Positions 13,009 through 46,156 of a stretch of 64,000 nt of DNA are shown here, piece by piece (position 1 is the stretch's first letter; every line of letters starts with the position of its first letter). Below the pieces are notes generated by a model. The model ran no database searches. It was not told where the DNA came from and was given only the letters and a program-made list of their open reading frames with translations. This DNA comes from a virus. Lineage: Duplodnaviria; Heunggongvirae; Uroviricota; Caudoviricetes. Made by a program: the position numbers and the translations under genes. The stretch covers positions 14,463 to 78,462 of IMG/VR virus record IMGVR_UViG_3300010412_000010, one strand, 5' to 3'.

Positions 13009-15027
13009 ATGGCCTTCTATCTAAGTCCAATTATTGATGTAAATGAGATTGACCTTACCCTTGGGGTTCCGGCAGTTTCAACTTCTATCGGTGCGTTTGC
13101 TGGTCCTTTCGTATGGGGTCCGGTTGAAGAGATTGTAACTATCGCATCCGAAACCGAACTTGCTGCAAGATTCGGCAAGCCAGATAACGACACTGCGGCA
13201 TCATGGTTCAGTGCTGCCAACTTTTTGGCATATTCAAATAACCTGAAAACTGTCCGTGTTGTTGGTTCTCTTGCCGTAAACGCTGGTTCTTCGGGAACAG
13301 GCGTTCTTATCAAAAACGAAACTGATTATGAAAATAAGATTGACGGAATCGTTCTTGATGGCTCAGAATTTTTTGCAAAATATCCTGGTTCTCTTGGAAA
13401 TGGTTTGCAAGTGTATGCCCAAAACTCAGCAAACTATTCTTCATGGACATTCGCTGATGCGTTTGATTCTGCCCCAGCAGCAAACGAAATTCATTTGGTA
13501 GTTGTTGACGGTGACGGTACATGGACTGGTATCGCCGGTAATATTTTGGAAAAATTTGCATTCTTGTCAACTGTTGCTGGTACCCAGTCTTCGGATGGTT
13601 CGAATGTGTACTACAAAGATGTCATCACCCAGCAATCCAGATACATTTGGGTTGGTGGTGGAGCAGACGAAACCGCGTTCACCAATGCAAGCCAAACCAA
13701 TTCAATTTCTTCGGAATCAACTGTTGTTGCTGCACTAGACCCAAGTGTTGTTGCACTGACAACTGACATTTCTGGAACAGATTTGTTGTATGTTACTTTC
13801 GATTCTGGTTCTGGCCCAGTTGAGTTGGTGGAAGGCGTTGACTACACCAAGACAATTAACGCGTCTCCAACACCAGACGAATTGGACTTCACCCTACTGA
13901 ATGGTGGTGCTACCTTCCCAGTTGGCGGAACAATTGCCGTTGTTGTTACCCCAGCAACCATTACGACTACCGCACCTTTCGATGCGGACGATACCTTGGT
14001 TGTTACCATTGGTACTTCTACCCTGGTGGAAGGCACCGAATATAGCAGAACAGCACCAAACATGATTAATATGTTGTTGCCGTTGGAAGTCGCTGGTACG
14101 CTGACAATCAAAAACGAATTCTTTGCAGAATTGTCTGGCGGGGTTGACGATAACATTGGTGTTGATATCACCGATGGATATGAAATGTTCAGAAATGCCG
14201 AAGAGGTTGACATTTCGTTAGTTGTTACAGGCCCAGCCACCCAAGTACAAGCAGAATGGGTTCTGGACAATATCGGCGAATACAGAAAAGACTGTGTGGT
14301 ATTCATTTCCCCAGAAAAATCTGATGTCGTAAACAATCCAGGTGACGAAGTTGCTGATACCGTTGCGTTCAGAAACCAGTTCAATAGCTCTTCATATGGC
14401 TTCATGGACAATAACTGGAAAAAACAATACGACCGATACAACGATACCTTCCGTTGGGTTCCATTGAACGGTGATATTGCTGGCTTGGCCGCATATACCG
14501 ACAATGTTTCCGACCCTTGGTATTCGATTGCTGGTTTTAATCGCGGTCTGGTTAAGAATGTTGTCAAGTTGGCATACAGCCCGAACCAAACTCAGCGCGA
14601 TGAACTGTACAAGAATGGCGTGAATCCAGTGGTTAATTTCTCTGGTCAAGGCACTGTGTTGTATGGCGACAAAACCATGTTGTCTCGCCCAAGCGCGTTC
14701 GACAGAATCAATGTTCGTCGACTGTTTATTGTGTTGGAAAAGGCGATTGCTACAGCAGCAAAATATCAGTTGTTTGAATTCAACGACGAGTTTACTCGCG
14801 CACAGTTCAAGAACATGGTTGAGCCGTTCTTGCGTGATGTTCAAGGCCGTCGTGGTATCTATGACTTCCGAGTTGTTGCCGATACAACAAACAACACACC
14901 GGAAGTGATTGACAGAAACGAGTTTGTTGGTGATATCTATATCAAACCAGCTAGGTCAATTAATTTCATTCGACTGAACTTCATTGCGGTTCGCACTGGC
15001 GTGTCGTTCGAAGAAGTTGGCGCATAA
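13009..15027 (+). CDS. 18: tail sheath protein gp18
   Basis: C-terminal ~200 aa closely match T4 gp18 (KQYDRYNDTFRWVPLNGDIAGL...FDRINVRRLF...RVVADTTNNTPEVIDRNEFVGDIYIKPARSINFIRLNF). Confidence 0.9.
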   Translation: MAFYLSPIIDVNEIDLTLGVPAVSTSIGAFAGPFVWGPVEEIVTIASETELAARFGKPDNDTAASWFSAANFLAYSNNLKTVRVVGSLAVNAGSSGTGVLIKNETDYENKIDGIVLDGSEFFAKYPGSLGNGLQVYAQNSANYSSWTFADAFDSAPAANEIHLVVVDGDGTWTGIAGNILEKFAFLSTVAGTQSSDGSNVYYKDVITQQSRYIWVGGGADETAFTNASQTNSISSESTVVAALDPSVVALTTDISGTDLLYVTFDSGSGPVELVEGVDYTKTINASPTPDELDFTLLNGGATFPVGGTIAVVVTPATITTTAPFDADDTLVVTIGTSTLVEGTEYSRTAPNMINMLLPLEVAGTLTIKNEFFAELSGGVDDNIGVDITDGYEMFRNAEEVDISLVVTGPATQVQAEWVLDNIGEYRKDCVVFISPEKSDVVNNPGDEVADTVAFRNQFNSSSYGFMDNNWKKQYDRYNDTFRWVPLNGDIAGLAAYTDNVSDPWYSIAGFNRGLVKNVVKLAYSPNQTQRDELYKNGVNPVVNFSGQGTVLYGDKTMLSRPSAFDRINVRRLFIVLEKAIATAAKYQLFEFNDEFTRAQFKNMVEPFLRDVQGRRGIYDFRVVADTTNNTPEVIDRNEFVGDIYIKPARSINFIRLNFIAVRTGVSFEEVGA

Positions 15028-28993: not shown

Positions 28994-29389
28994 ATGCCAG
29001 AATTGGTTATTATTCGTGGTCTTCCTGGTTCTGGTAAATCCACCATTGCCAAAAAAGACGACTCGTTTGATGGGTATGCCCATTTTGAGGCCGACATGTA
29101 TTTCTTGGACGATACTGGCCAATACTTATTTGACCCAGCCAAGCTAAAAGAAGCACATGAATGGTGTTTCGCTGCCGCACAGTCGTGTTTGATTCACGGT
29201 CGCAATGTTGTCGTGTGTAATACCTTTTCTCGGCTGTGGGAAATGCAGCGATACCTTGACTTGGGGTTTCCTACTAAGGTGATTAAAGCAACGGGTAATT
29301 ACCGGAATGTACACGGCGTTCCGAATCATACAATCGAAAACATGCGCGCGCGGTGGGAAGACTATGACGGTGAAGTCGAATACATTTGA
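28994..29389 (+). CDS. P-loop kinase, polynucleotide-kinase (Pnk) kinase-domain-like
   Basis: VIIRGLPGSGKSTIAKK and overall layout resemble the T4 Pnk N-terminal kinase domain (ILTIGCPGSGKSTWAREF...). Confidence 0.5.
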   Translation: MPELVIIRGLPGSGKSTIAKKDDSFDGYAHFEADMYFLDDTGQYLFDPAKLKEAHEWCFAAAQSCLIHGRNVVVCNTFSRLWEMQRYLDLGFPTKVIKATGNYRNVHGVPNHTIENMRARWEDYDGEVEYI

Positions 29390-29717
29390 TTTTAGGGGCA
29401 GTCATGTGATATGTGATGCTGTATTGGTATCCATTCCAGACAATATTCATGAAATCATCGAGGATGGAATATCACATTCAAAAATGACCGTTGTTGACAA
29501 ATTGTCTTGTTATTTTAGTCCGCAGGGCGAAACCGTTGTGTGGATTTTGGCAGAAAGTCATTTTACCCTACATACATATCCGGAATATGAGTATATCAGC
29601 ATGGACTGTTATACTTGTGGTGAAGAGGGAAATCCGCTCGCTGCCATGGAGCATATTATTGGTGCTCTTGGTGTTGAAAAATATAAGATGACGGAGATTG
29701 GTCGTGGTGAGGTCTGA
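29364..29717 (+). CDS. speD: S-adenosylmethionine decarboxylase proenzyme (SpeD/SpeH class)
   Basis: Hallmark motif ESHFTLHTYPEYEYISMDCYTCG matches SpeH ESHISIHTWPE...VDVFTCG; start trimmed to ATG 29364. Confidence 0.7.
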   Translation: MTVKSNTFDFRGSHVICDAVLVSIPDNIHEIIEDGISHSKMTVVDKLSCYFSPQGETVVWILAESHFTLHTYPEYEYISMDCYTCGEEGNPLAAMEHIIGALGVEKYKMTEIGRGEV

Positions 29718-30884: not shown

Positions 30885-30959
30885 TGGACTGTAACTCAGT
30901 GGTAGAGTCCTCGACTGATAATCGAGTGGTCGGTGGTTCAAATCCACCCAGTCCAACCA
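30885..30959 (+). tRNA. tRNA-Ile (anticodon GAT)
   Basis: Cloverleaf folded by hand: acceptor tggactg/cagtcca, anticodon loop ctGATaa, T-loop ttcaaat, encoded CCA. Confidence 0.8.
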
Positions 30960-32522: not shown

Positions 32523-32863
32523 TGAACGCGCTGTTTAACCTGTTCCTGTTTGCTACAACTGCTGTTGGGTTGTGTTTGGTGTACTGGGTATTGCCGTCTG
32601 AATTTTGGGCGGCTCTTCCAGAACCCGTAGCGAAGAATCGGAAAAAAATTCTTGGTTTCTTTGTGTTGATTGTGTTGATTATCGGTGGATATTCGTCTCT
32701 GAACACATATGGAATCCGGAATAATGTTTCTGTTTCTGGTGGAACCTATGTTCCTGAACAACAAGAAGTACCAGAAACAAAAGACATTTTTTCAAAAGAA
32801 AAAGACCGCTCTTCGGTGTTTAGTGACCGATTGGATGATGAGAAGGTTGATGGCACATTATGA
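32522..32863 (+). CDS. small membrane protein, possible NfeD-like partner of the SPFH protein
   Basis: Two TM helices followed by a soluble C-terminal domain; start overlaps the SPFH stop (TAATG). Confidence 0.35.
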   Translation: MNALFNLFLFATTAVGLCLVYWVLPSEFWAALPEPVAKNRKKILGFFVLIVLIIGGYSSLNTYGIRNNVSVSGGTYVPEQQEVPETKDIFSKEKDRSSVFSDRLDDEKVDGTL

Positions 32864-33789
32864 TTCCGGTGGATGCTCGCCCAGAGCAATACAAACAAGA
32901 GCACTGTTGGCAATATGATATTAGGCTCAATAATCTGAAAGAAGACATGTTGCGTGATGGTATTTCGGAAGAAGACCTGTCCAACATGTCGATTTCAGAT
33001 TTTGAGTTTTCGTTTGTCGACAAATCAAACAAAGTTGTTTTTGCGGAAGTTGTTGGGTTTATCGAGCGACACGAATGGCTTGGAAAAATGTCTTTGTATC
33101 CAACCCATTTGTTTGTGGCAAGATATAAACACAGAATTGTTCCGGGTTCTCTTTCAAAAAATGTTCTTGCTGGCGTAATCGTAATGGACATGCCAGCATC
33201 ATTCTCAAATCTTCTTGGCAAAGACACCAGAAAAATCGAACGGTTGGTTTCTCGTGGAGCATGTATTTCTTGGTCTCCAAAAAATTTGGCCAGTTCGTTG
33301 TTGATGTATTCAATCAAGTGGATGGTCGCCAATACCCAGTATCGACTTTTTACCGCATATTCCGACCCAGAAGCAAGAGAGCTTGGAACGATTTATCAAG
33401 CTTGTAATTTTACTTACATTGGCCAGAATTTTGGTGTCGGTAAAAAATATAGATACCCAAATACAGACCGATGGATTAGTGACCGTAGCTTTCGGTCTCG
33501 TTCGGCATATCGTCGCTACGCAAAGGCTCTAGGAATCGCTTGGCAGGATTCTTGGCAGCTTGCCGGTAAGGATACTATTGATTGGACAAAAGTTCCTGAT
33601 GATGTCGAGGATGCGCTACGAGCAGAATCCAAGAGACAATACCAGATATGTGATGTCAGAGAGACGCCAAGCAAGCATAAATATTGCTACATTTTAGGTA
33701 GAACCAAGAAAGAGACAAAAATTCTCAAAAAAAGATTTGCCGAATTGAACCCAAACCTGATAAATTTACCATATCCAAAATCAAGATAA
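32860..33789 (+). CDS. hypothetical protein
   Basis: 309-aa ORF, no family recognised. Confidence 0.4.
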   Translation: MIPVDARPEQYKQEHCWQYDIRLNNLKEDMLRDGISEEDLSNMSISDFEFSFVDKSNKVVFAEVVGFIERHEWLGKMSLYPTHLFVARYKHRIVPGSLSKNVLAGVIVMDMPASFSNLLGKDTRKIERLVSRGACISWSPKNLASSLLMYSIKWMVANTQYRLFTAYSDPEARELGTIYQACNFTYIGQNFGVGKKYRYPNTDRWISDRSFRSRSAYRRYAKALGIAWQDSWQLAGKDTIDWTKVPDDVEDALRAESKRQYQICDVRETPSKHKYCYILGRTKKETKILKKRFAELNPNLINLPYPKSR

Positions 33790-34077: not shown

Positions 34078-34277
34078 AGTCTGCCAGAGATAACCGTCTG
34101 GCTAGTCGGGGTGGTGGCCGATGAACTGAAAGCTGGCGTGGTGCCAGTACAAACCACTGGCGTGGCATGGCCAGAACATGCTCGGCACTGGCTTGTCGTG
34201 AGTTGGTATGGGATGGAGCGCACATTTCCCCCCAGTTATGGCGCTGGGAAGTTACCGCCAACATGCCTAATATTTTG

Positions 34278-34353
34278 AGCCTTTAGCTCAGTTGGTTAGA
34301 GCAGTCCGCTCATAACGGATAGGTCGTAGGTTCAAGTCCTACAAGGCTCACCA
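34278..34353 (+). tRNA. tRNA-Met (CAT)
   Basis: Canonical D arm tagctcagttggttagagc; anticodon loop ctCATaa; T arm gtagg-ttcaagt-cctac; CCA. Confidence 0.8.
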
Positions 34354-37398: not shown

Positions 37399-37488
37399 TG
37401 GAAGGGTGTCCGAGCGGCTTAAGGAACTGGTCTTGAAAACCAGCGAAGGAGAAATCCTTCCGTGAGTTCAAATCTCACCCCTTCCGCC
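37399..37488 (+). tRNA. tRNA-Ser (TGA)
   Basis: Type II, 90 nt; anticodon arm ctggt-ctTGAaa-accag; long variable arm; G73; CCA. Confidence 0.8.
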
Positions 37489-37507
37489 AATTATGGGTTG
37501 TTAAATA

Positions 37508-37592
37508 ATGGAGCGTAACCGAGTGGTCAAAGGTATCAGACTTTTAATCTGACGCGAAATGCTTCGGGGGTTCGAATCCCCCCGCTCCAACC
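37508..37592 (+). tRNA. type-II (long-variable-arm) tRNA with apparent anticodon TTT; identity uncertain (Leu-like body, A73)
   Basis: Acceptor tggagcg/cgctcca; 3-bp D stem; anticodon arm tcaga-cTTTTaa-tctga; 14-nt variable arm; T arm ggggg-ttcgaat-ccccc; CCA. Confidence 0.5.
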
Positions 37593-37611
37593 ACTTTATC
37601 AAGAGGATGTT

Positions 37612-38172
37612 ATGTCTCAGGCGTCTATTGCATATTGGATTGACCCCAAGGGTAAGCTTGTATCTGGTGGGTTGAAACGACACATCGAATTGGTTGCGGC
37701 TTCGCCAACCAAATTCTTAATTTCTAAAAAAGAAGTCGAATCCATCTATAACAAACACAATGAAGTTGTTGGAACAGAAGGTAAGGCGCGGGAAGAAATT
37801 ATCAAAAAAATCCTTAGCGTTGGTTTTATTCGCCTACGCATTTATCCAAACGATTATTGGAGTGTGACTGTCGATACATTCAATCGTCGAGCAAAGGTTG
37901 CGTTACAGAAATGGGCACAACAGGAAGGCGGACTGATGCCTGTGAAAATTTCACAATCAGGAAAGCCATCCGCAAAAACGATTGAATATACCGTAGATGA
38001 ACTTGCAAATGGCGACCATTTGTTTGAGCAAGCAGACTATGAGCTTGCAAAAACATTTACCATTGAGGTTGTCGATATTGAACATTTTGGTTTTGATGTT
38101 GATGATAACGCGGTGATTTTCAATCGAAACCTAGTGATTGAAACTTTGAAGAAATGTGGGCGATTAGTTTAA
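37612..38172 (+). CDS. hypothetical protein
   Basis: 186-aa ORF; its last 15 nt overlap the acceptor stem of the following tRNA-like gene. Confidence 0.4.
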   Translation: MSQASIAYWIDPKGKLVSGGLKRHIELVAASPTKFLISKKEVESIYNKHNEVVGTEGKAREEIIKKILSVGFIRLRIYPNDYWSVTVDTFNRRAKVALQKWAQQEGGLMPVKISQSGKPSAKTIEYTVDELANGDHLFEQADYELAKTFTIEVVDIEHFGFDVDDNAVIFNRNLVIETLKKCGRLV

Positions 38173-38252
38173 TTGGTAAAACACCAAGCTTATACCTTGG
38201 CATGGCACCAGATTAGTGCAAGTTGTCCGTTCGAATCGGACATCGCCCACCA
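38158..38252 (+). tRNA. atypical 95-nt tRNA, anticodon TAT (Ile-AUA?), ~24-nt variable arm
   Basis: Perfect acceptor gggcgat/atcgccc; D stem gttt/aaac; anticodon arm ccaag-ctTATac-cttgg; T arm gtccg-ttcgaat-cggac; CCA. Overlaps the CDS 3' end. Confidence 0.4.
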
Positions 38253-38269
38253 TAACACGGATTTATATT

Positions 38270-38779
38270 ATGCCCATGAAAGAAGTTGATTTTGATGTTG
38301 CAGAAATCAGAAAGGCGATTGAAGAAAGCACTGAAACCACTTCGATATATGTTGGTGCCGATTCAAAAAAATGTAGGGACAATGTTGTTTATGCGACAGT
38401 TGTTGTTTTGCATTTTGACTCCAAGCATGGTGGAAAGATTTTCAAGGACATTAAAATCGAACCGTATTATGGAAGCGTTCGGCAGAAATTGATGTTCGAA
38501 GTATACAAGGCTGCTGATATCGCATATAAAATCATGGATGTTGTTGGTGCTCGCAGGTTTCAGATTCATTTGGATTTGAACCCAAACAAAGACCAGTTAA
38601 GCAACATTGTTGTGAAAGAGGCGACTGGTTATATTCTGGGTACTGTTGGGTTTGCGCCAACATTGAAACCGGACGCGTTTGCTGCATCCACTGCTGCTGA
38701 TGAATTTGCAGTAAAGAATGCTAAATTTGGTAGGAAGTTTTTCAGGAAAAGGCGAAATAAAAAAAATCATGGTGGTTGA
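38270..38779 (+). CDS. hypothetical protein
   Basis: Start trimmed to ATG 38270 to clear the tRNA; basic C-terminus. Confidence 0.4.
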   Translation: MPMKEVDFDVAEIRKAIEESTETTSIYVGADSKKCRDNVVYATVVVLHFDSKHGGKIFKDIKIEPYYGSVRQKLMFEVYKAADIAYKIMDVVGARRFQIHLDLNPNKDQLSNIVVKEATGYILGTVGFAPTLKPDAFAASTAADEFAVKNAKFGRKFFRKRRNKKNHGG

Positions 38780-40596: not shown

Positions 40597-40673
40597 GGGC
40601 AGGTGATGGAATTGGCATACATGTTGCGCTTAGAACGCAAATTTTAAGGGTTCGAGTCCCTTCTTGCCCACCA
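40597..40673 (+). tRNA. class-I tRNA with anticodon TAG (Leu codon CUA), irregular D arm
   Basis: Acceptor gggcagg/cttgccc; anticodon arm ttgcg-ctTAGaa-cgcaa; T arm aaggg-ttcgagt-ccctt; CCA; D stem poorly paired. Confidence 0.5.
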
Positions 40674-40690
40674 TTTATATCATCTATGTC

Positions 40691-40768
40691 GTCTAGTTGA
40701 TGGGAATTGGTATACCTCCTTTCCTCAAAAGTAAGGGCTTCTTGGTTCGAGTCCAAGACTAGACACCA
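40691..40768 (+). tRNA. tRNA-like gene with aberrant 11-nt anticodon loop (possible pseudo-tRNA)
   Basis: Perfect acceptor gtctagt/actagac and T arm cttgg-ttcgagt-ccaag with CCA, but anticodon stem tcctt/aaggg encloses tcctcaaaagt. Confidence 0.35.
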
Positions 40769-40772
40769 TTTT

Positions 40773-40850
40773 GGGCTGGTAGAGAATTGGAATATCGGTC
40801 AGACTTAAAATTTGGCGTCATTGTGGGTTCGATGCCCACCCAGCCTACCA
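40773..40850 (+). tRNA. class-I tRNA with anticodon TAA (Leu codon UUA), 7-nt variable loop
   Basis: Acceptor gggctgg/ccagcct; anticodon arm tcaga-ctTAAaa-tttgg (two G-U pairs); T arm gtggg-ttcgatg-cccac; CCA. Confidence 0.5.
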
Positions 40851-41290: not shown

Positions 41291-41375
41291 GGGGGTTCGT
41301 CGGAGTGGGAGAGCCGAGTCGGACTGTAAATTCGATGTGAAAGCTGAGTAGGTTCGAATCCTACAGCCCCCACCA
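41291..41375 (+). tRNA. tRNA-Tyr (GTA)
   Basis: Type II, 85 nt; anticodon arm tcgga-ctGTAaa-ttcga; T arm gtagg-ttcgaat-cctac; CCA. Confidence 0.8.
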
Positions 41376-41724: not shown

Positions 41725-41739
41725 ATAAATACAAATATG

Positions 41740-41813
41740 CGGGCTAGCCCAAGGTGGGTCACCGGCCTTCCAAGCCGTGTAGGGTGGGTTTCGATTACCC
41801 CAGTCCGCTCCAG
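41740..41813 (+). tRNA. tRNA-Gly (TCC)
   Basis: 74 nt; acceptor gcgggct/agtccgc resembles E. coli Gly2; anticodon loop ctTCCaa; short D arm; CCA. Confidence 0.65.
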
Positions 41814-43457: not shown

Positions 43458-44357
43458 TGTTTTTGGGGCATAGCCCAGATAACCAATCGTAAGGTTGGGA
43501 AAGGTGTGAAGTCAACATAACACCACCTTCGCAAGAAGGCCAATCTATGCAAGCCGAGGAAGTAGTACCTAGTGTGCCATGCATACTAGGAACGGATGAA
43601 ACAAGAGGTAAAAGTCAGTGCAATAATCAAAGACTGGCCAGCAAAGAATGGGGACATTTGATGCTACCTGTATCCAACTTGTGAACCGTATTTCCGAAGG
43701 GTAGGGTGGATAGTGAGAGTTTTAGCGGACAATTGCACCATCCAGTTTACGAGGTTGCTTTGTCATATCGACAAAGAATCTTGAAAAACGGTATGAGTAT
43801 TCTTAGCGGAAGAAAATACAGGGGGCGCGTTGTATTTTGTGGTTCAAAAGACCATGAAGCAACCGGAAGCGCGCGTCCTAGTTGATACGATATAGCCGAA
43901 TGGTACGGCATCAGCCTTCTAAGCTGACGATTGGTGGTTCGATTCCATCTATTGTTTACAAAAGCAAAGACGCTTCCGGTGTCAGATGAAAATGACTTAA
44001 GCCCGTGCGCGCAAGCGAACGCGGGAAGTCCAAGGCTCGCAAGGCTGCGGATTTTTAAGGTGTAGTTGCACGGAACCGAAGCACGGTTTGTAGCCCGCAA
44101 GGCTGACGGTAAACGAAACTTTGAGAAGTCTGGCACGACAAGAGAACCGCCACTCTTCAAAAAAGGCAGTCATGGAGAAATAGATATTTGGGCGAAAGCT
44201 GGGTATCTGGATAAGACTTTAACACTGGCAGCAACCAGTTGGTACGGAGTCGAAAGTTTCTTCAAGTGAGGGTGTAATCTCAGCCCAAACCAAATATTCG
44301 CATGGTGATTGGAAAACTGGATTACTGAATAGTACCGACAGTCACCAGCCGAATATT
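43458..44357 (+). ncRNA. promoter-driven structured non-coding region (candidate stable RNA(s); RNase P RNA-like motifs in 43981-44357)
   Basis: No plausible + strand ORF; multiple GNRA-type hairpins; contains a tRNA-like element. Motifs gggaagtccaaggctcgc, gacggtaaacg, cacgacaagagaaccgcc, agcccaaaccaaata and acagtcaccagccgaata resemble RNase P RNA conserved regions I, III, IV and V in the correct order. Confidence 0.3.
43886..43957 (+). tRNA. tRNA-like element (Arg TCT-type anticodon), no encoded CCA, 1:72 mismatch
   Basis: D arm gccg-aatggta-cggc; anticodon arm tcagc-ctTCTaa-gctga; T arm ggtgg-ttcgatt-ccatc; flanked by 10-bp inverted repeats accggaagcg (43862-71) and cgcttccggt (43971-80). 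Confidence 0.35.
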
Positions 44358-45400: not shown

Positions 45401-46156
45401 TTGGAGGTTCATATGAGAACATTGCGGGAAGTAAAAAATACACCACAAGAGTTGGCAGAAGAGTTTGGTGCTCTTTTGGAAGCGTCATTTTCTCGATTAT
45501 TTCAGCATTTCCAAGAGCGTCCGATTGGTATTATTACTGCATTCCGTCGTTGTAACACGCGGGAAAAAAACCGTGAGCGGAATCGGGTTCTTGCAAAAGA
45601 ATTGCGCGCTGCTGGGTATGGGTTTATCCGAGCGCATGGCTATTATCCGGAAACTGGCGATGATGGCGAAAAGAAAAAGCGCGAAGAGGTTTTTATTGTT
45701 GTTGGTGATGTTGAAGACGCGGATGGTTCCAAACTACAAAAAAAACTAACCCATCTTGGGTATAAATGGAACCAAGATTCTGTATTCATAAAGCCAGCCA
45801 ATAGCGACAATGCCAAGCTGGTTGGTACCCAAGACATTGACAGGGATTGTAAAGTTGGTGAGCCTGTGTGGCCAGGACGAAACAAGGTCGCTAGGCTTGG
45901 GAAATGGGAACCAAATAAAATCGGCCTGTTCTATTCCAAAATGACCGGCAGGACTTTCGTGTTTACTTTGTTGGATGATGGTGAGGTGGTTGAGGAATTG
46001 GATTTGACTGGTCGTGTATATTCCGATTCGTCCATGTTTGGTGCGTGGGCAAAACACCTTATTGAGAATTGCGGACATAAGGTATACACGGAAGAAGAAT
46101 ATGACGCAATTCTAGCCAAGGAAAGGGCGGAAAAGCAGAAACACCAGAGCGGTTAA
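45401..46156 (+). CDS. hypothetical protein
   Basis: 251-aa ORF, no family recognised. Confidence 0.4.
   Translation: MEVHMRTLREVKNTPQELAEEFGALLEASFSRLFQHFQERPIGIITAFRRCNTREKNRERNRVLAKELRAAGYGFIRAHGYYPETGDDGEKKKREEVFIVVGDVEDADGSKLQKKLTHLGYKWNQDSVFIKPANSDNAKLVGTQDIDRDCKVGEPVWPGRNKVARLGKWEPNKIGLFYSKMTGRTFVFTLLDDGEVVEELDLTGRVYSDSSMFGAWAKHLIENCGHKVYTEEEYDAILAKERAEKQKHQSG

Follow-up and report, generated by a model that had tools for sequence, protein, structure and literature searches.

The 64,000-nucleotide stretch of viral DNA analysed here (the window; positions 14,463 to 78,462 of the IMG/VR record IMGVR_UViG_3300010412_000010, Caudoviricetes) carries 29 tRNA genes, all of which lie on the plus strand between 30885 and 45044 according to ARAGORN, and two of them depart from the usual tRNA architecture: a tRNA-Lys with the anticodon UUU and a tRNA-Ile with the anticodon UAU (Table 1). 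An original prediction made from the sequence alone had proposed both genes by hand folding, and ARAGORN and the general Rfam tRNA covariance model, which provided all tRNA calls in this study, agree with that folding. The boundaries proposed for the tRNA-Ile gene (38158-38252) proved exact, whereas the tRNA-Lys gene (37509-37593) lies one base to the right of the predicted 37508-37592. In a 16-kb search the Rfam model matched both genes over their full length, the tRNA-Lys with 63.1 bits (E = 6e-12) and the tRNA-Ile with 60.6 bits (E = 3e-11) against a gathering score of 29, and thus returned neither a pseudogene score nor a more conventional fold. Minimum free energy folding (z = -2.4 and -2.9) reproduced the acceptor and T arms of both, as well as a 4-bp extra hairpin in the tRNA-Ile. 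Mis-folding by hand, an alternative that the prediction itself had raised, and pseudogene status are ruled out for either gene by ARAGORN, the Rfam scores and the compensatory changes among homologues described below. We conclude that each gene adds a new member to a tRNA architecture that recurs but is essentially uncharacterised.

The tRNA-Ile(UAU) gene has the anatomy that had been described for it, with acceptor and T stems of 7 and 5 bp (7/5), a 4-bp D stem with an 8-nt loop, A73 and an encoded CCA end, and the prediction that it is an Ile reader with a UAU anticodon stands. The 24 nt that separate the anticodon stem from the T stem consist of a 4-nt linker (CATG), the extra hairpin and a 5-nt linker. 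This hairpin, which is 1 bp shorter than an anticodon arm, closes a loop centred on GAU, and five of its seven loop bases equal those of CUGAUAA, which we take to be the anticodon loop of E. coli tRNA-Ile1, the two differences being U33 to A and A37 to U. Positions 33 and 37 are needed for the U-turn and for t6A, features that matter for decoding. With its class I D arm, its linkers of 4 and 5 nt and an anticodon that is not that of Leu, Ser or Tyr, the tRNA is not of class II; rather, it has a class I body into which a hairpin is inserted at the 43/44 junction. The bacterial Ile identity set comprises A73, C4-G69, U12-A23, the D-loop residues G16/U20/U21, C29-G41, G34 or lysidine, A35, U36, t6A37 and A38 (Giege and Eriani, 2023, Table 1; PMC9976931). 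Judging by the sequence and the ARAGORN fold, the body of the phage tRNA carries A73, C4-G69 and U12-A23, and its decoding arm has U34, A29-U41 and C38 in place of G34 or L34 (lysidine), C29-G41 and A38; the extra hairpin supplies equivalents of G34, A35, U36, C29-G41, C32 and A38.

Table 1. Positions of the two tRNA genes, their parts and neighbouring features in the window, and of over-long tRNAs on other phage contigs (contig numbers are those of our scans).
Feature	Position	Strand	Remarks
tRNA-Ser(UGA), canonical class II	37400..37489	+	ARAGORN; 19 nt upstream of the tRNA-Lys gene; reference for a normal long variable arm
tRNA-Lys(UUU), 85 nt	37509..37593	+	ARAGORN tRNA-Lys(ttt); Rfam tRNA model
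Anticodon TTT of tRNA-Lys	37543..37545	+	Loop C-T-TTT-A-A at 37541-37547
14-nt variable region of tRNA-Lys, CGCGAAATGCTTCG	37553..37566	+	Short GC..GC stem, small loop, then TTCG, as in bacterial tRNA-Tyr
ORF (open reading frame), 186 aa	37612..38172	+	Shine-Dalgarno-like AAGAGG upstream; no recognisable family
tRNA-Ile(UAU), 95 nt	38158..38252	+	ARAGORN tRNA-Ile(tat); Rfam tRNA model
Decoding anticodon TAT of tRNA-Ile	38191..38193	+	Loop C-T-TAT-A-C at 38189-38195 (RNA CUUAUAC)
Extra hairpin GCAC-CAGATTA-GTGC	38205..38219	+	4-bp helix, 7-nt loop; C-G at the equivalents of 31-39 and 29-41
GAT, centre of the extra loop	38211..38213	+	Anticodon of the major tRNA-Ile
3' linker AAGTT, 5 nt	38220..38224	+	Length of a normal class I variable loop
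RNase H-like gene (PF04308 / phrog_11311)	38270..38779	+	Directly downstream of tRNA-Ile(UAU)
Over-long tRNAs on other contigs	L004 1398-1489, 3155-3239, 7478-7572; L006 1590-1673; L008 7516-7596; also L087, L165, L191

The long-arm tRNA-Ile(UAU) belongs to a widespread family. A blastn search of deposited phages matched the annotated 95-nt tRNA-Ile of the T4-like cyanophage SynMITS9220M01, in which the extra hairpin is identical to that of the window, whereas the remainder of the tRNA differs. A pattern that left all stems free (CTTATA..CAGATTA..GTTCRANTC) retrieved more than 120 IMG/VR contigs, with 110 of the matches listed carrying a tRNA-Ile(tat) of 88-96 nt by ARAGORN, and a tighter pattern retrieved at least 119 contigs of GTDB species genomes; as in all of our collection scans, which are pattern-based, these are minimum counts, and what was sampled varies with the pattern used. 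Many of the GTDB carriers are Acidobacteriota, in which the gene is part of arrays with 10-38 tRNAs in 8 kb and bears the same CCAGAUUAG hairpin in our genome scan, and the rest include single copies in Ruegeria, Roseovarius, Sulfitobacter and Shimia and scattered members of other phyla. Synechococcus phage DSL-LC02 is a further cultured carrier, as are two Herelleviridae, Lactobacillus phages LpeD and ENFP1, and some family members are annotated plainly as tRNA-Ile in GenBank. The decoding loop is CTTATAA, CTTATAC or CTTATAT across the family, the second being that of the window, and among the body determinants A73 is nearly invariant (125/126), with C4-G69 in 46% and U12-A23 in 68%. Most phage members have a 7/5 body with a normal D arm and A73, and some other family members have a short-loop D arm.

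Our first family pattern had fixed the extra loop, and the scan was repeated with a pattern whose sole constraints were the loops of the anticodon and T arms and the spacing. It yielded 79 unique long-arm tRNA-Ile(UAU) genes, 76 of which have a hairpin of 4 bp with a 7-nt loop. Numbered as an anticodon arm, these hairpins carry G at '34' in 74, A at '35' in 74 and U at '36' in 73 of the 76 (GAU, about 97%); beside this triplet they carry a pyrimidine at '32' in 75, A at '33' in 70, U at '37' in 61 and A at '38' in 58. These frequencies are to be taken from the 76 hairpins of the repeat scan and not from our alignment A2, which omits three of the 48 distinct hairpin segments (two without GAU and one mis-registered). 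Within the extra helix, pair '29-41' is C-G in 71/76 (93%) and pair '31-39' is C-G in 66/76, whereas '30-40' and '28-42' are free to vary, with five pair types each; pair 29-41 of the true anticodon stem of the same tRNAs is not conserved (GC 30, CG 23, AT 21). When the segments were anchored on the loop and pairing was not required, the four stem pairs were Watson-Crick or G-U in 96-100%, with compensatory changes at three of them, and the fifth flanking position was paired in only 30%. The covariation score of the helix is 0.855, compared to at most 0.204 in slid registers, and none of 500 shuffles scored as high (the hairpins in this comparison were preselected for pairing). The tether is likewise constrained: the 5' linker measures 2-6 nt and the 3' linker 5-6 nt in all 117 family members measured, whereas the canonical Ser, Leu and Tyr arms of the same loci have linkers of 1-3 nt. 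ATCT, which is complementary to the loop core, is under-represented inside family tRNAs (9 observed, about 38 expected), so the extra loop is probably unpaired, and pairing with a complementary motif within the tRNA is ruled out. Use of the hairpin as the decoding anticodon or as part of an alternative cloverleaf is unlikely, with A at '33' in 70/76, which precludes a U-turn, and U at '37'.

The hairpin is exclusive to tRNAs with U34. A pattern in which A35 and U36 were kept, position 34 was G, C or A and the hairpin was obligatory matched none of the viral contigs, whereas the matched U34 control retrieved at least 66 loci; the same G/C/A34 pattern gave 14 chance matches among 241 million metagenome records, none of them in a tRNA and none with a paired stem. 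The hairpin is thus absent from tRNAs with GAU, CAU and AAU anticodons, and the idea that it is a general trait of phage Ile or Met tRNAs is ruled out by the lack of any genuine non-U34 case. In loci selected by a Tyr/Leu-type scaffold, all 26 tRNA-Ile(UAU) genes are 69-77 nt long and lack the hairpin; they lie in 20 loci, at least half of which are on named giant-virus contigs. Eukaryotic IleRS (isoleucyl-tRNA synthetase) accepts any N34 (Giege and Eriani, 2023; PMC9976931). The giant-virus contigs of our scans (GVMAG, L317-L427) encode normal-length tRNA-Ile(UAU) genes, often in several copies.

No dedicated partner protein was found next to the gene. The commonest protein families near the tRNA are HNH homing endonucleases, and even the most frequent family occurs in only 16 of 145 loci; because conservation extends to none of the adjoining genes, the hairpin is probably read by a host factor of universal occurrence. 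In 11 of the 145 loci, the window included, a PF04308 RNase H-like gene is located no more than 4 kb from the tRNA, often directly downstream on the same strand (for example in L062, L073, L083 and L090). In several Ruegeria genomes (L193, L202, L207, L224 and others), the chromosomal tRNA and about 2.6 kb downstream of it are roughly 90% identical between species, the upstream flank is variable, and a Cro/C1-type helix-turn-helix gene and ORFans lie nearby; these copies are probably located in accessory DNA, and the arrangement suggests a mobile island.

The tRNA-Lys(UUU) gene also has the anatomy described in the original prediction: a 7-bp acceptor stem (U1-A72), A73, an encoded CCA end, a D arm of 3 bp plus GAGUGGUCAAA with an 11-nt loop, which is of the bacterial tRNA-Tyr type, the 14-nt variable region and the anticodon loop CUUUUAA, in which U33 sets the anticodon as UUU and rules out an ochre-suppressor reading. 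Its long arm has linkers of 0-3 nt and its D arm is of class II, so that it has the form of a class II tRNA with an anticodon other than those of Leu, Ser or Tyr, and it does not have the class I body of cellular tRNA-Lys. The prediction of a class II scaffold that reads a class I codon holds for this gene: among deposited phages it is matched best by genes that are annotated as tRNA-Tyr (up to 83.8%), alongside an 87-nt 'tRNA-Lys(CTT)' of Caulobacter jumbo phages, and its best E. coli match is tRNA-Tyr (74-76%) in all 5,426 genomes. Among the tRNAs of viruses, Tyr(GUA) comes nearest to it in identity (best 0.80, median 0.72), followed by Leu and then Ser, with short tRNA-Lys last (median 0.60). 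It shares with bacterial tRNA-Tyr the 3-bp D stem, the D loop GAGYGGYCAAA, a short variable arm that terminates in UUCG, and the discriminator A73, and differs from it in having UUU instead of GUA and U1-A72 instead of G1-C72; a separate tRNA-Tyr(GUA) is encoded in the same array. That gene (41291-41375) reaches only 42.6 bits, has an unusual 4-bp D stem and is 65% identical to the tRNA-Lys gene, so the more canonical Tyr-type scaffold of this phage is the one that carries UUU.

Homologous long-arm UUU tRNAs of 81-86 nt occur on nine IMG/VR contigs, one of which also encodes the same scaffold with UUG, and long-arm tRNAs with UUU or CUU recur in about ten divergent phage lineages with a mutual identity of 70-81%. 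Across ten sequences the cloverleaf is 99.1% paired, 14 of its 22 pairs have double-sided changes, and the covariation score is 0.691, compared to at most 0.118 in slid registers; by this pattern of substitution the long-arm UUU tRNAs are selected, working genes. When any anticodon was allowed on the scaffold, the scan gave 101 unique tRNAs, made up of 54 Tyr(GUA), 46 Leu(UAA/CAA), of which many come from giant-virus contigs, and a single Lys(UUU), indicating that the switch of a Tyr body to UUU is rare but recurrent. On giant-virus contigs (L317-L427) a tRNA-Leu(UAA/CAA) scaffold comes close to that of the phage long-arm tRNA-Lys, with the same D arm, a YGC..GCTTCG variable arm and the same T arm. 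One viral contig with a long-arm tRNA(UUU), L005, also bears a tmRNA gene called by ARAGORN (1620-2005).

Both codons are in demand. Over 65 ORFs of the window, AAA occurs 851 times (66% of Lys codons) and AUA 218 times (17% of Ile codons, 12 per 1000), and this heavy use as ordinary Lys and Ile codons speaks against the reprogrammed decoding that the original prediction had considered. The phage probably carries three Ile decoders: GAU at 30885, CAU with lysidine at 34277-34353 and UAU at 38158; the CAT-anticodon tRNA among them has annotated tRNA-Ile genes as its best E. coli matches (79-82%).

The existence of the tRNA-Ile(UAU) family, its extra helix, the conservation of GAU and of the C-G pair, the restriction to UAU anticodons, the geometry of the tether and the demand for AUA decoding are established. 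E. coli IleRS prefers LAU over UAU about 360-fold, and one substitution, W905R, is enough to relieve this discrimination (Taniguchi et al., 2013; PMC3575796). We propose that the hairpin is a natural pseudo-anticodon arm, such that IleRS would read the hairpin and the ribosome would read UAU. By presenting G-A-U at the equivalents of 34-36 and C-G at the equivalent of 29-41 to the host enzyme, the tRNA-borne copy of GAU would solve the poor recognition of UAU for a phage that is unable to alter host IleRS, while A33 and U37 of the extra loop would prevent its use as a decoding anticodon. A tRNA-Ile with an unmodified-type UAU anticodon could then read AUA, with no need for TilS, the lysidine enzyme of the host. 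A hairpin that stands in for the anticodon arm in recognition by IleRS is a tentative proposal, to which we give odds close to, and no better than, even.

For the tRNA-Lys, the best account is that a class II body of the tRNA-Tyr type had its anticodon changed to UUU and would supply the dominant Lys codon of the phage, AAA. It is the only tRNA with a Lys anticodon among the 29 of the window, and in each array that bears one the long-arm gene is the only UUU tRNA, and two of the nine contigs have a normal tRNA-Lys(CUU) beside it; a Caulobacter phage of 63% GC has CUU as its anticodon, and contigs of 35-54% GC have UUU. The identity of bacterial LysRS consists of the anticodon triplet and A73, and bacterial Tyr identity includes G1-C72 (PMC9976931). 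The window tRNA has U34-U35-U36 together with A73, and of the Tyr elements it retains A73 alone, lacking GUA and G1-C72. Because the triplet and A73 are both present, the long-arm UUU tRNA most likely accepts lysine, as judged from its gene. The benefit of a class II body is less clear, and escape from host nucleases that target tRNA-Lys(UUU) is the leading idea, which we treat as a lead. Phage T5 variants of tRNA-Lys(UUU), of tRNA-Thr(UGU) and of tRNA-Asn(GUU) neutralise AriB of the PARIS system (Belukhina et al., 2025; PMC12409363), and, as phage replacements of the targets of a defence nuclease, they escape through differences in the anticodon stem and distal features of the D loop. The T5 tRNAs are ordinary class I molecules with U39A, A41C and U16C, whereas the window tRNA-Lys differs in overall architecture. 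Over-long tRNAs that combine class II-like D arms with class I anticodons also occur on other phage contigs, including jumbo phages of about 310 kb (Table 1), among them Asn(GUU) of 92 nt, Glu(UUC) of 85 nt, Pro(CGG) of 95 nt, Thr(UGU) of 84 nt and Gln(UUG) of 81 nt.

Taken jointly, the best explanation of the locus is that both are functional tRNAs of recurrent non-standard families, the tRNA-Ile with a hairpin for IleRS and the tRNA-Lys a Tyr-bodied UUU tRNA, and we give this a probability of roughly 0.5. Several observations weigh against it. On the Ile side, position '37' of the hairpin is U in 80%, whereas t6A37 is a strong determinant of bacterial IleRS, and the geometry by which the anticodon-binding domain of the enzyme would reach the hairpin is presumed. 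Short UAU tRNAs are found in phage contigs too (5 of 131 in family loci, plus L008), so the hairpin is not obligatory, and a window that probably has a CAU-type tRNA-Ile2 does not strictly need a UAU decoder. The hairpin is also present in the Lactobacillus phages LpeD and ENFP1, and lactic acid bacteria reportedly own a tRNA-Ile(UAU) and an IleRS that recognises UAU, to go by the titles of papers from 2018 (Tomikawa) and 2022 (Uesugi). Six acidobacterial allo-tRNA-UAU variants were inactive in E. coli after their anticodon had been changed from UAU to CUA, and two were toxic, in an assay that scored only Ser insertion (PMC5389517). On the Lys side, four of the nine lineages of long-arm UUU tRNA have U73 instead of A73, and the body keeps Tyr features, which makes charging with Tyr, or dual charging, possible. 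The window tRNA-Lys also keeps the AriB cleavage motif U36-A-A-U-C, so any protection would have to lie in the altered D arm or in the arm emerging beside the cleavage site. The nuclease lead also draws on over-long bystander tRNAs, which are commonest for Asn(GUU), Lys(UUU) and Thr(UGU), the reported targets of AriB (10/144 versus 14/835, odds ratio 4.4, p = 0.001), but in a comparison made post hoc on sequences that are not independent.

How else might the two architectures be explained? The hairpin could dock a factor other than IleRS, such as a U34-modifying enzyme that limits misreading of AUG, a phage protein or a steric shield against nucleases, with charging left to the body determinants and A35/U36 alone. 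A conserved sequence with a single-stranded loop would fit any sequence-specific reader, a wobble-restricting modification would be useful in a tRNA whose unmodified UAU misreads AUG on E. coli ribosomes, and both the U at '37', which departs from t6A37, and the RNase H-like gene found near the tRNA in some loci would be accommodated. The conserved bases, however, are not an arbitrary motif but match the anticodon-arm determinants of IleRS (G34, A35, U36, C29-G41 and A38), and with hosts that range from cyanobacteria to Firmicutes and Acidobacteriota and no partner gene conserved beside the tRNA, the reader must be universal, as IleRS is; we therefore consider another docking factor unlikely. 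For the tRNA-Lys, the class II body could be a neutral accident in which a duplicate of tRNA-Tyr gained UUU and replaced a lost tRNA-Lys. Any body would suffice for a LysRS that reads mainly the anticodon and A73, and the rarity of UUU on this scaffold fits such an origin, but the combination recurs in about ten divergent lineages, it occurs with CUU and UUG anticodons as well, and the post hoc enrichment of long arms among Lys(UUU), Thr(UGU) and Asn(GUU) speaks against it too, which leaves this account doubtful without making it implausible.

Two further explanations would cover both tRNAs. They could be regulatory or decoy RNAs without a role in translation, for instance sponges that soak up anticodon nucleases, or RNAs associated with mobile elements or with toxin-antitoxin systems. 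In favour of this are the acidobacterial allo-tRNA-UAU genes, for which such a role has been suggested and which lie near toxin-antitoxin genes and transposons and were inactive in the assay (Mukai et al., PMC5389517), the Ruegeria copies in variable, ORFan-rich DNA with a Cro/C1-type gene, and the AriB motif of the tRNA-Lys, which a decoy would retain. However, the array of 29 tRNAs spans all 20 amino acids only if the two are counted as Lys and Ile, and an encoded CCA, A73, perfect acceptor and T arms, U33 and A37 in the decoding loops, compensatory evolution across the whole cloverleaf and codons in high demand are features of tRNAs that work in translation; a purely non-translational role thus appears quite improbable. 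Least probable of all, in our estimate, is that one or both are charged through the long arm and not the anticodon, inserting Leu, Ser or Tyr at AUA or AAA in a deliberate mistranslation, after the manner of nematode nev-tRNAs or Ser-type allo-tRNAs. In its favour, a nematode variable-arm tRNA-Ile(UAU) is leucylated in vitro (PMC3333845, PMC4300185), LeuRS and SerRS ignore anticodons, and the Tyr-type body of the tRNA-Lys comes with A73 and U35. Yet A73 excludes bacterial Ser identity; the tRNA-Ile combines a class I D arm with hairpin linkers of 2-6 and 5-6 nt, as opposed to 1-3 nt in real class II arms; and enzymes that read the shape of an arm would leave the conservation of the loop and its exclusivity for U34 unexplained. 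In the tRNA-Lys, G34 and A36 are replaced and the Tyr determinant G1-C72 is U1-A72, and mistranslation would affect hundreds of AAA and AUA codons in a phage that has no other Lys tRNA and does have a separate tRNA-Tyr.

Among known systems, the tRNA-Ile resembles the allo-tRNA-UAU group (Mukai et al., 2017; NAR 45:2776; PMC5389517), which likewise combines a long extra arm with a non-Ser anticodon, predominantly UAU. Because the acidobacterial array copies carry the same hairpin, at least part of the acidobacterial allo-tRNA-UAU group is, on this sequence criterion, the same family as the window gene. Allo-tRNAs are defined by an 8/4 or 9/3 branch, a D arm like that of tRNA-Sec (long stem, tetraloop) and, in most cases, G73 or U73, whereas the window gene is 7/5, with an eighth acceptor pair that would place U8 opposite C and is unpaired, a 4-bp D stem with an 8-nt loop, and A73; strict membership in the 8/4 or 9/3 group is ruled out by the 7/5 body and A73. 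The 2017 study tested Ser identity only and suggested a non-translational role, and it does not mention IleRS, AUA decoding or the GAU loop (PMC5389517); a 2020 review repeats its account. The mechanism that we propose is that of engineered variable-arm tRNAs (Mukai, 2020; IJMS 21:7793; PMC7590224), in which an anticodon-arm mimic with GUG attracts a synthetase domain and so improves aminoacylation, the decoding of a different codon being left to the true anticodon. That system is synthetic, built on a 9/3 allo-tRNA chassis with HisRS fused to an additional anticodon-binding domain, whereas the window-type hairpin occurs widely in nature and would need to function with an IleRS that is itself unmodified. 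Mycoplasma mobile also decodes AUA independently of TilS and faces the same problem of U34 recognition (Taniguchi et al., 2013; PMC3575796), but there the solution lies in the enzyme (IleRS Arg865, a W to R change in the Zn-binding domain) and in the ribosome, with an ordinary class I tRNA-Ile(UAU), whereas the phage adaptation would lie in the tRNA. The nematode nev-tRNA-Ile(UAU) has a true class II, Leu-type body, is leucylated in vitro and is eukaryote-specific, and no conserved GAU loop is reported for it (Hamashima et al., 2012; PMC3333845); the tether of the phage hairpin differs from the nematode arm. Full-text literature searches, whose coverage left out most subscription journals so that a prior description is possible, found no natural tRNA arm bearing GAU.

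The window, with a GC content of 42.6%, derives from a myovirus without a close deposited relative. Megablast of the window against INPHARED found no close phage relative, and the best relative found is a viral contig (L022) that shares 11 ORFs at 35-54% amino-acid identity. Recognised genes encode a tail sheath, a portal, a major head protein, a large terminase, a DNA polymerase, a DnaB-like helicase and a T5 A1-like DNA transfer protein; genes for tRNA repair, aminoacyl-tRNA synthetases and TilS were sought in the tRNA region and none were found. The ORF between the two tRNA genes, whose protein had no match in IMG/VR, shares its last 15 nt, stop codon included, with the first 15 nt of the tRNA-Ile gene, as the original prediction had noted; this overlap is real and unremarkable, such overlaps being frequent in compact phage genomes.

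Three tRNA-Leu genes of the same cluster (UAG, CAA and UAA at 40597-40673, 40691-40768 and 40773-40850) lack a long variable arm: they measure 77-78 nt with variable loops of 5-6 nt, and retain a Leu-type D arm and A73. Our viral scan found such short tRNA-Leu genes on at least 120 contigs (93 unique, 74-79 nt, A73 in 78/78), and in 24 of 120 of these loci, among the matches listed, as well as in Lactobacillus phage LpeD, a long-arm tRNA-Ile(UAU) co-occurs; the searchable literature yielded no description of arm-less phage tRNA-Leu. The cluster also harbours a full-length GOLLD RNA (43822-44286; Rfam RF02032, 190.5 bits, E = 1e-52), which contains a tRNA-Arg(UCU)-like sequence without CCA at 43885-43959, and, between tRNA-Ser(GCU) and tRNA-Thr(GGU), a sub-threshold Rfam tRNA match without an ARAGORN call (41739-41809; 23.8 bits, E = 0.39) that may be a degraded tRNA. 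A Mom-family gene (PF25680) lies inside the cluster, and genes for S-adenosylmethionine decarboxylase and S-adenosylmethionine lyase flank it (32860-33789; 29307-29717; 45413-46156); judging by the title alone, a 2026 paper is said to tie a viral Mom-type enzyme to tRNA-dependent DNA hypermodification.

The tRNA-Ile may be a natural two-headed tRNA, in which synthetase identity and codon reading are physically uncoupled and with which mobile elements decode AUA without TilS, and phages may routinely re-architect their tRNAs, as in the long-arm Lys, Thr and Asn tRNAs and the arm-less tRNA-Leu, which would stay chargeable while the surfaces seen by defence nucleases change; we hold this as a possibility of somewhat less than even odds. 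The signature of a pseudo-anticodon arm in the Ile family is, at the level of sequence, statistically robust and directly testable, and the cultured systems SynMITS9220M01, LpeD and ENFP1 make such tests accessible. If the proposal is correct, this would be the first natural tRNA with a synthetase identity element duplicated on a separate arm, it would explain how phages decode AUA independently of TilS with an unaltered host IleRS, and it would offer synthetic biology a natural, ready-made scaffold in which charging identity is split from codon reading. Together, the Tyr-bodied tRNA-Lys and the arm-less tRNA-Leu indicate that class I/II architecture is far more plastic in phages than textbook rules allow, which matters for the annotation of viral tRNA isotypes and possibly for the arms race around tRNA-cleaving defences.

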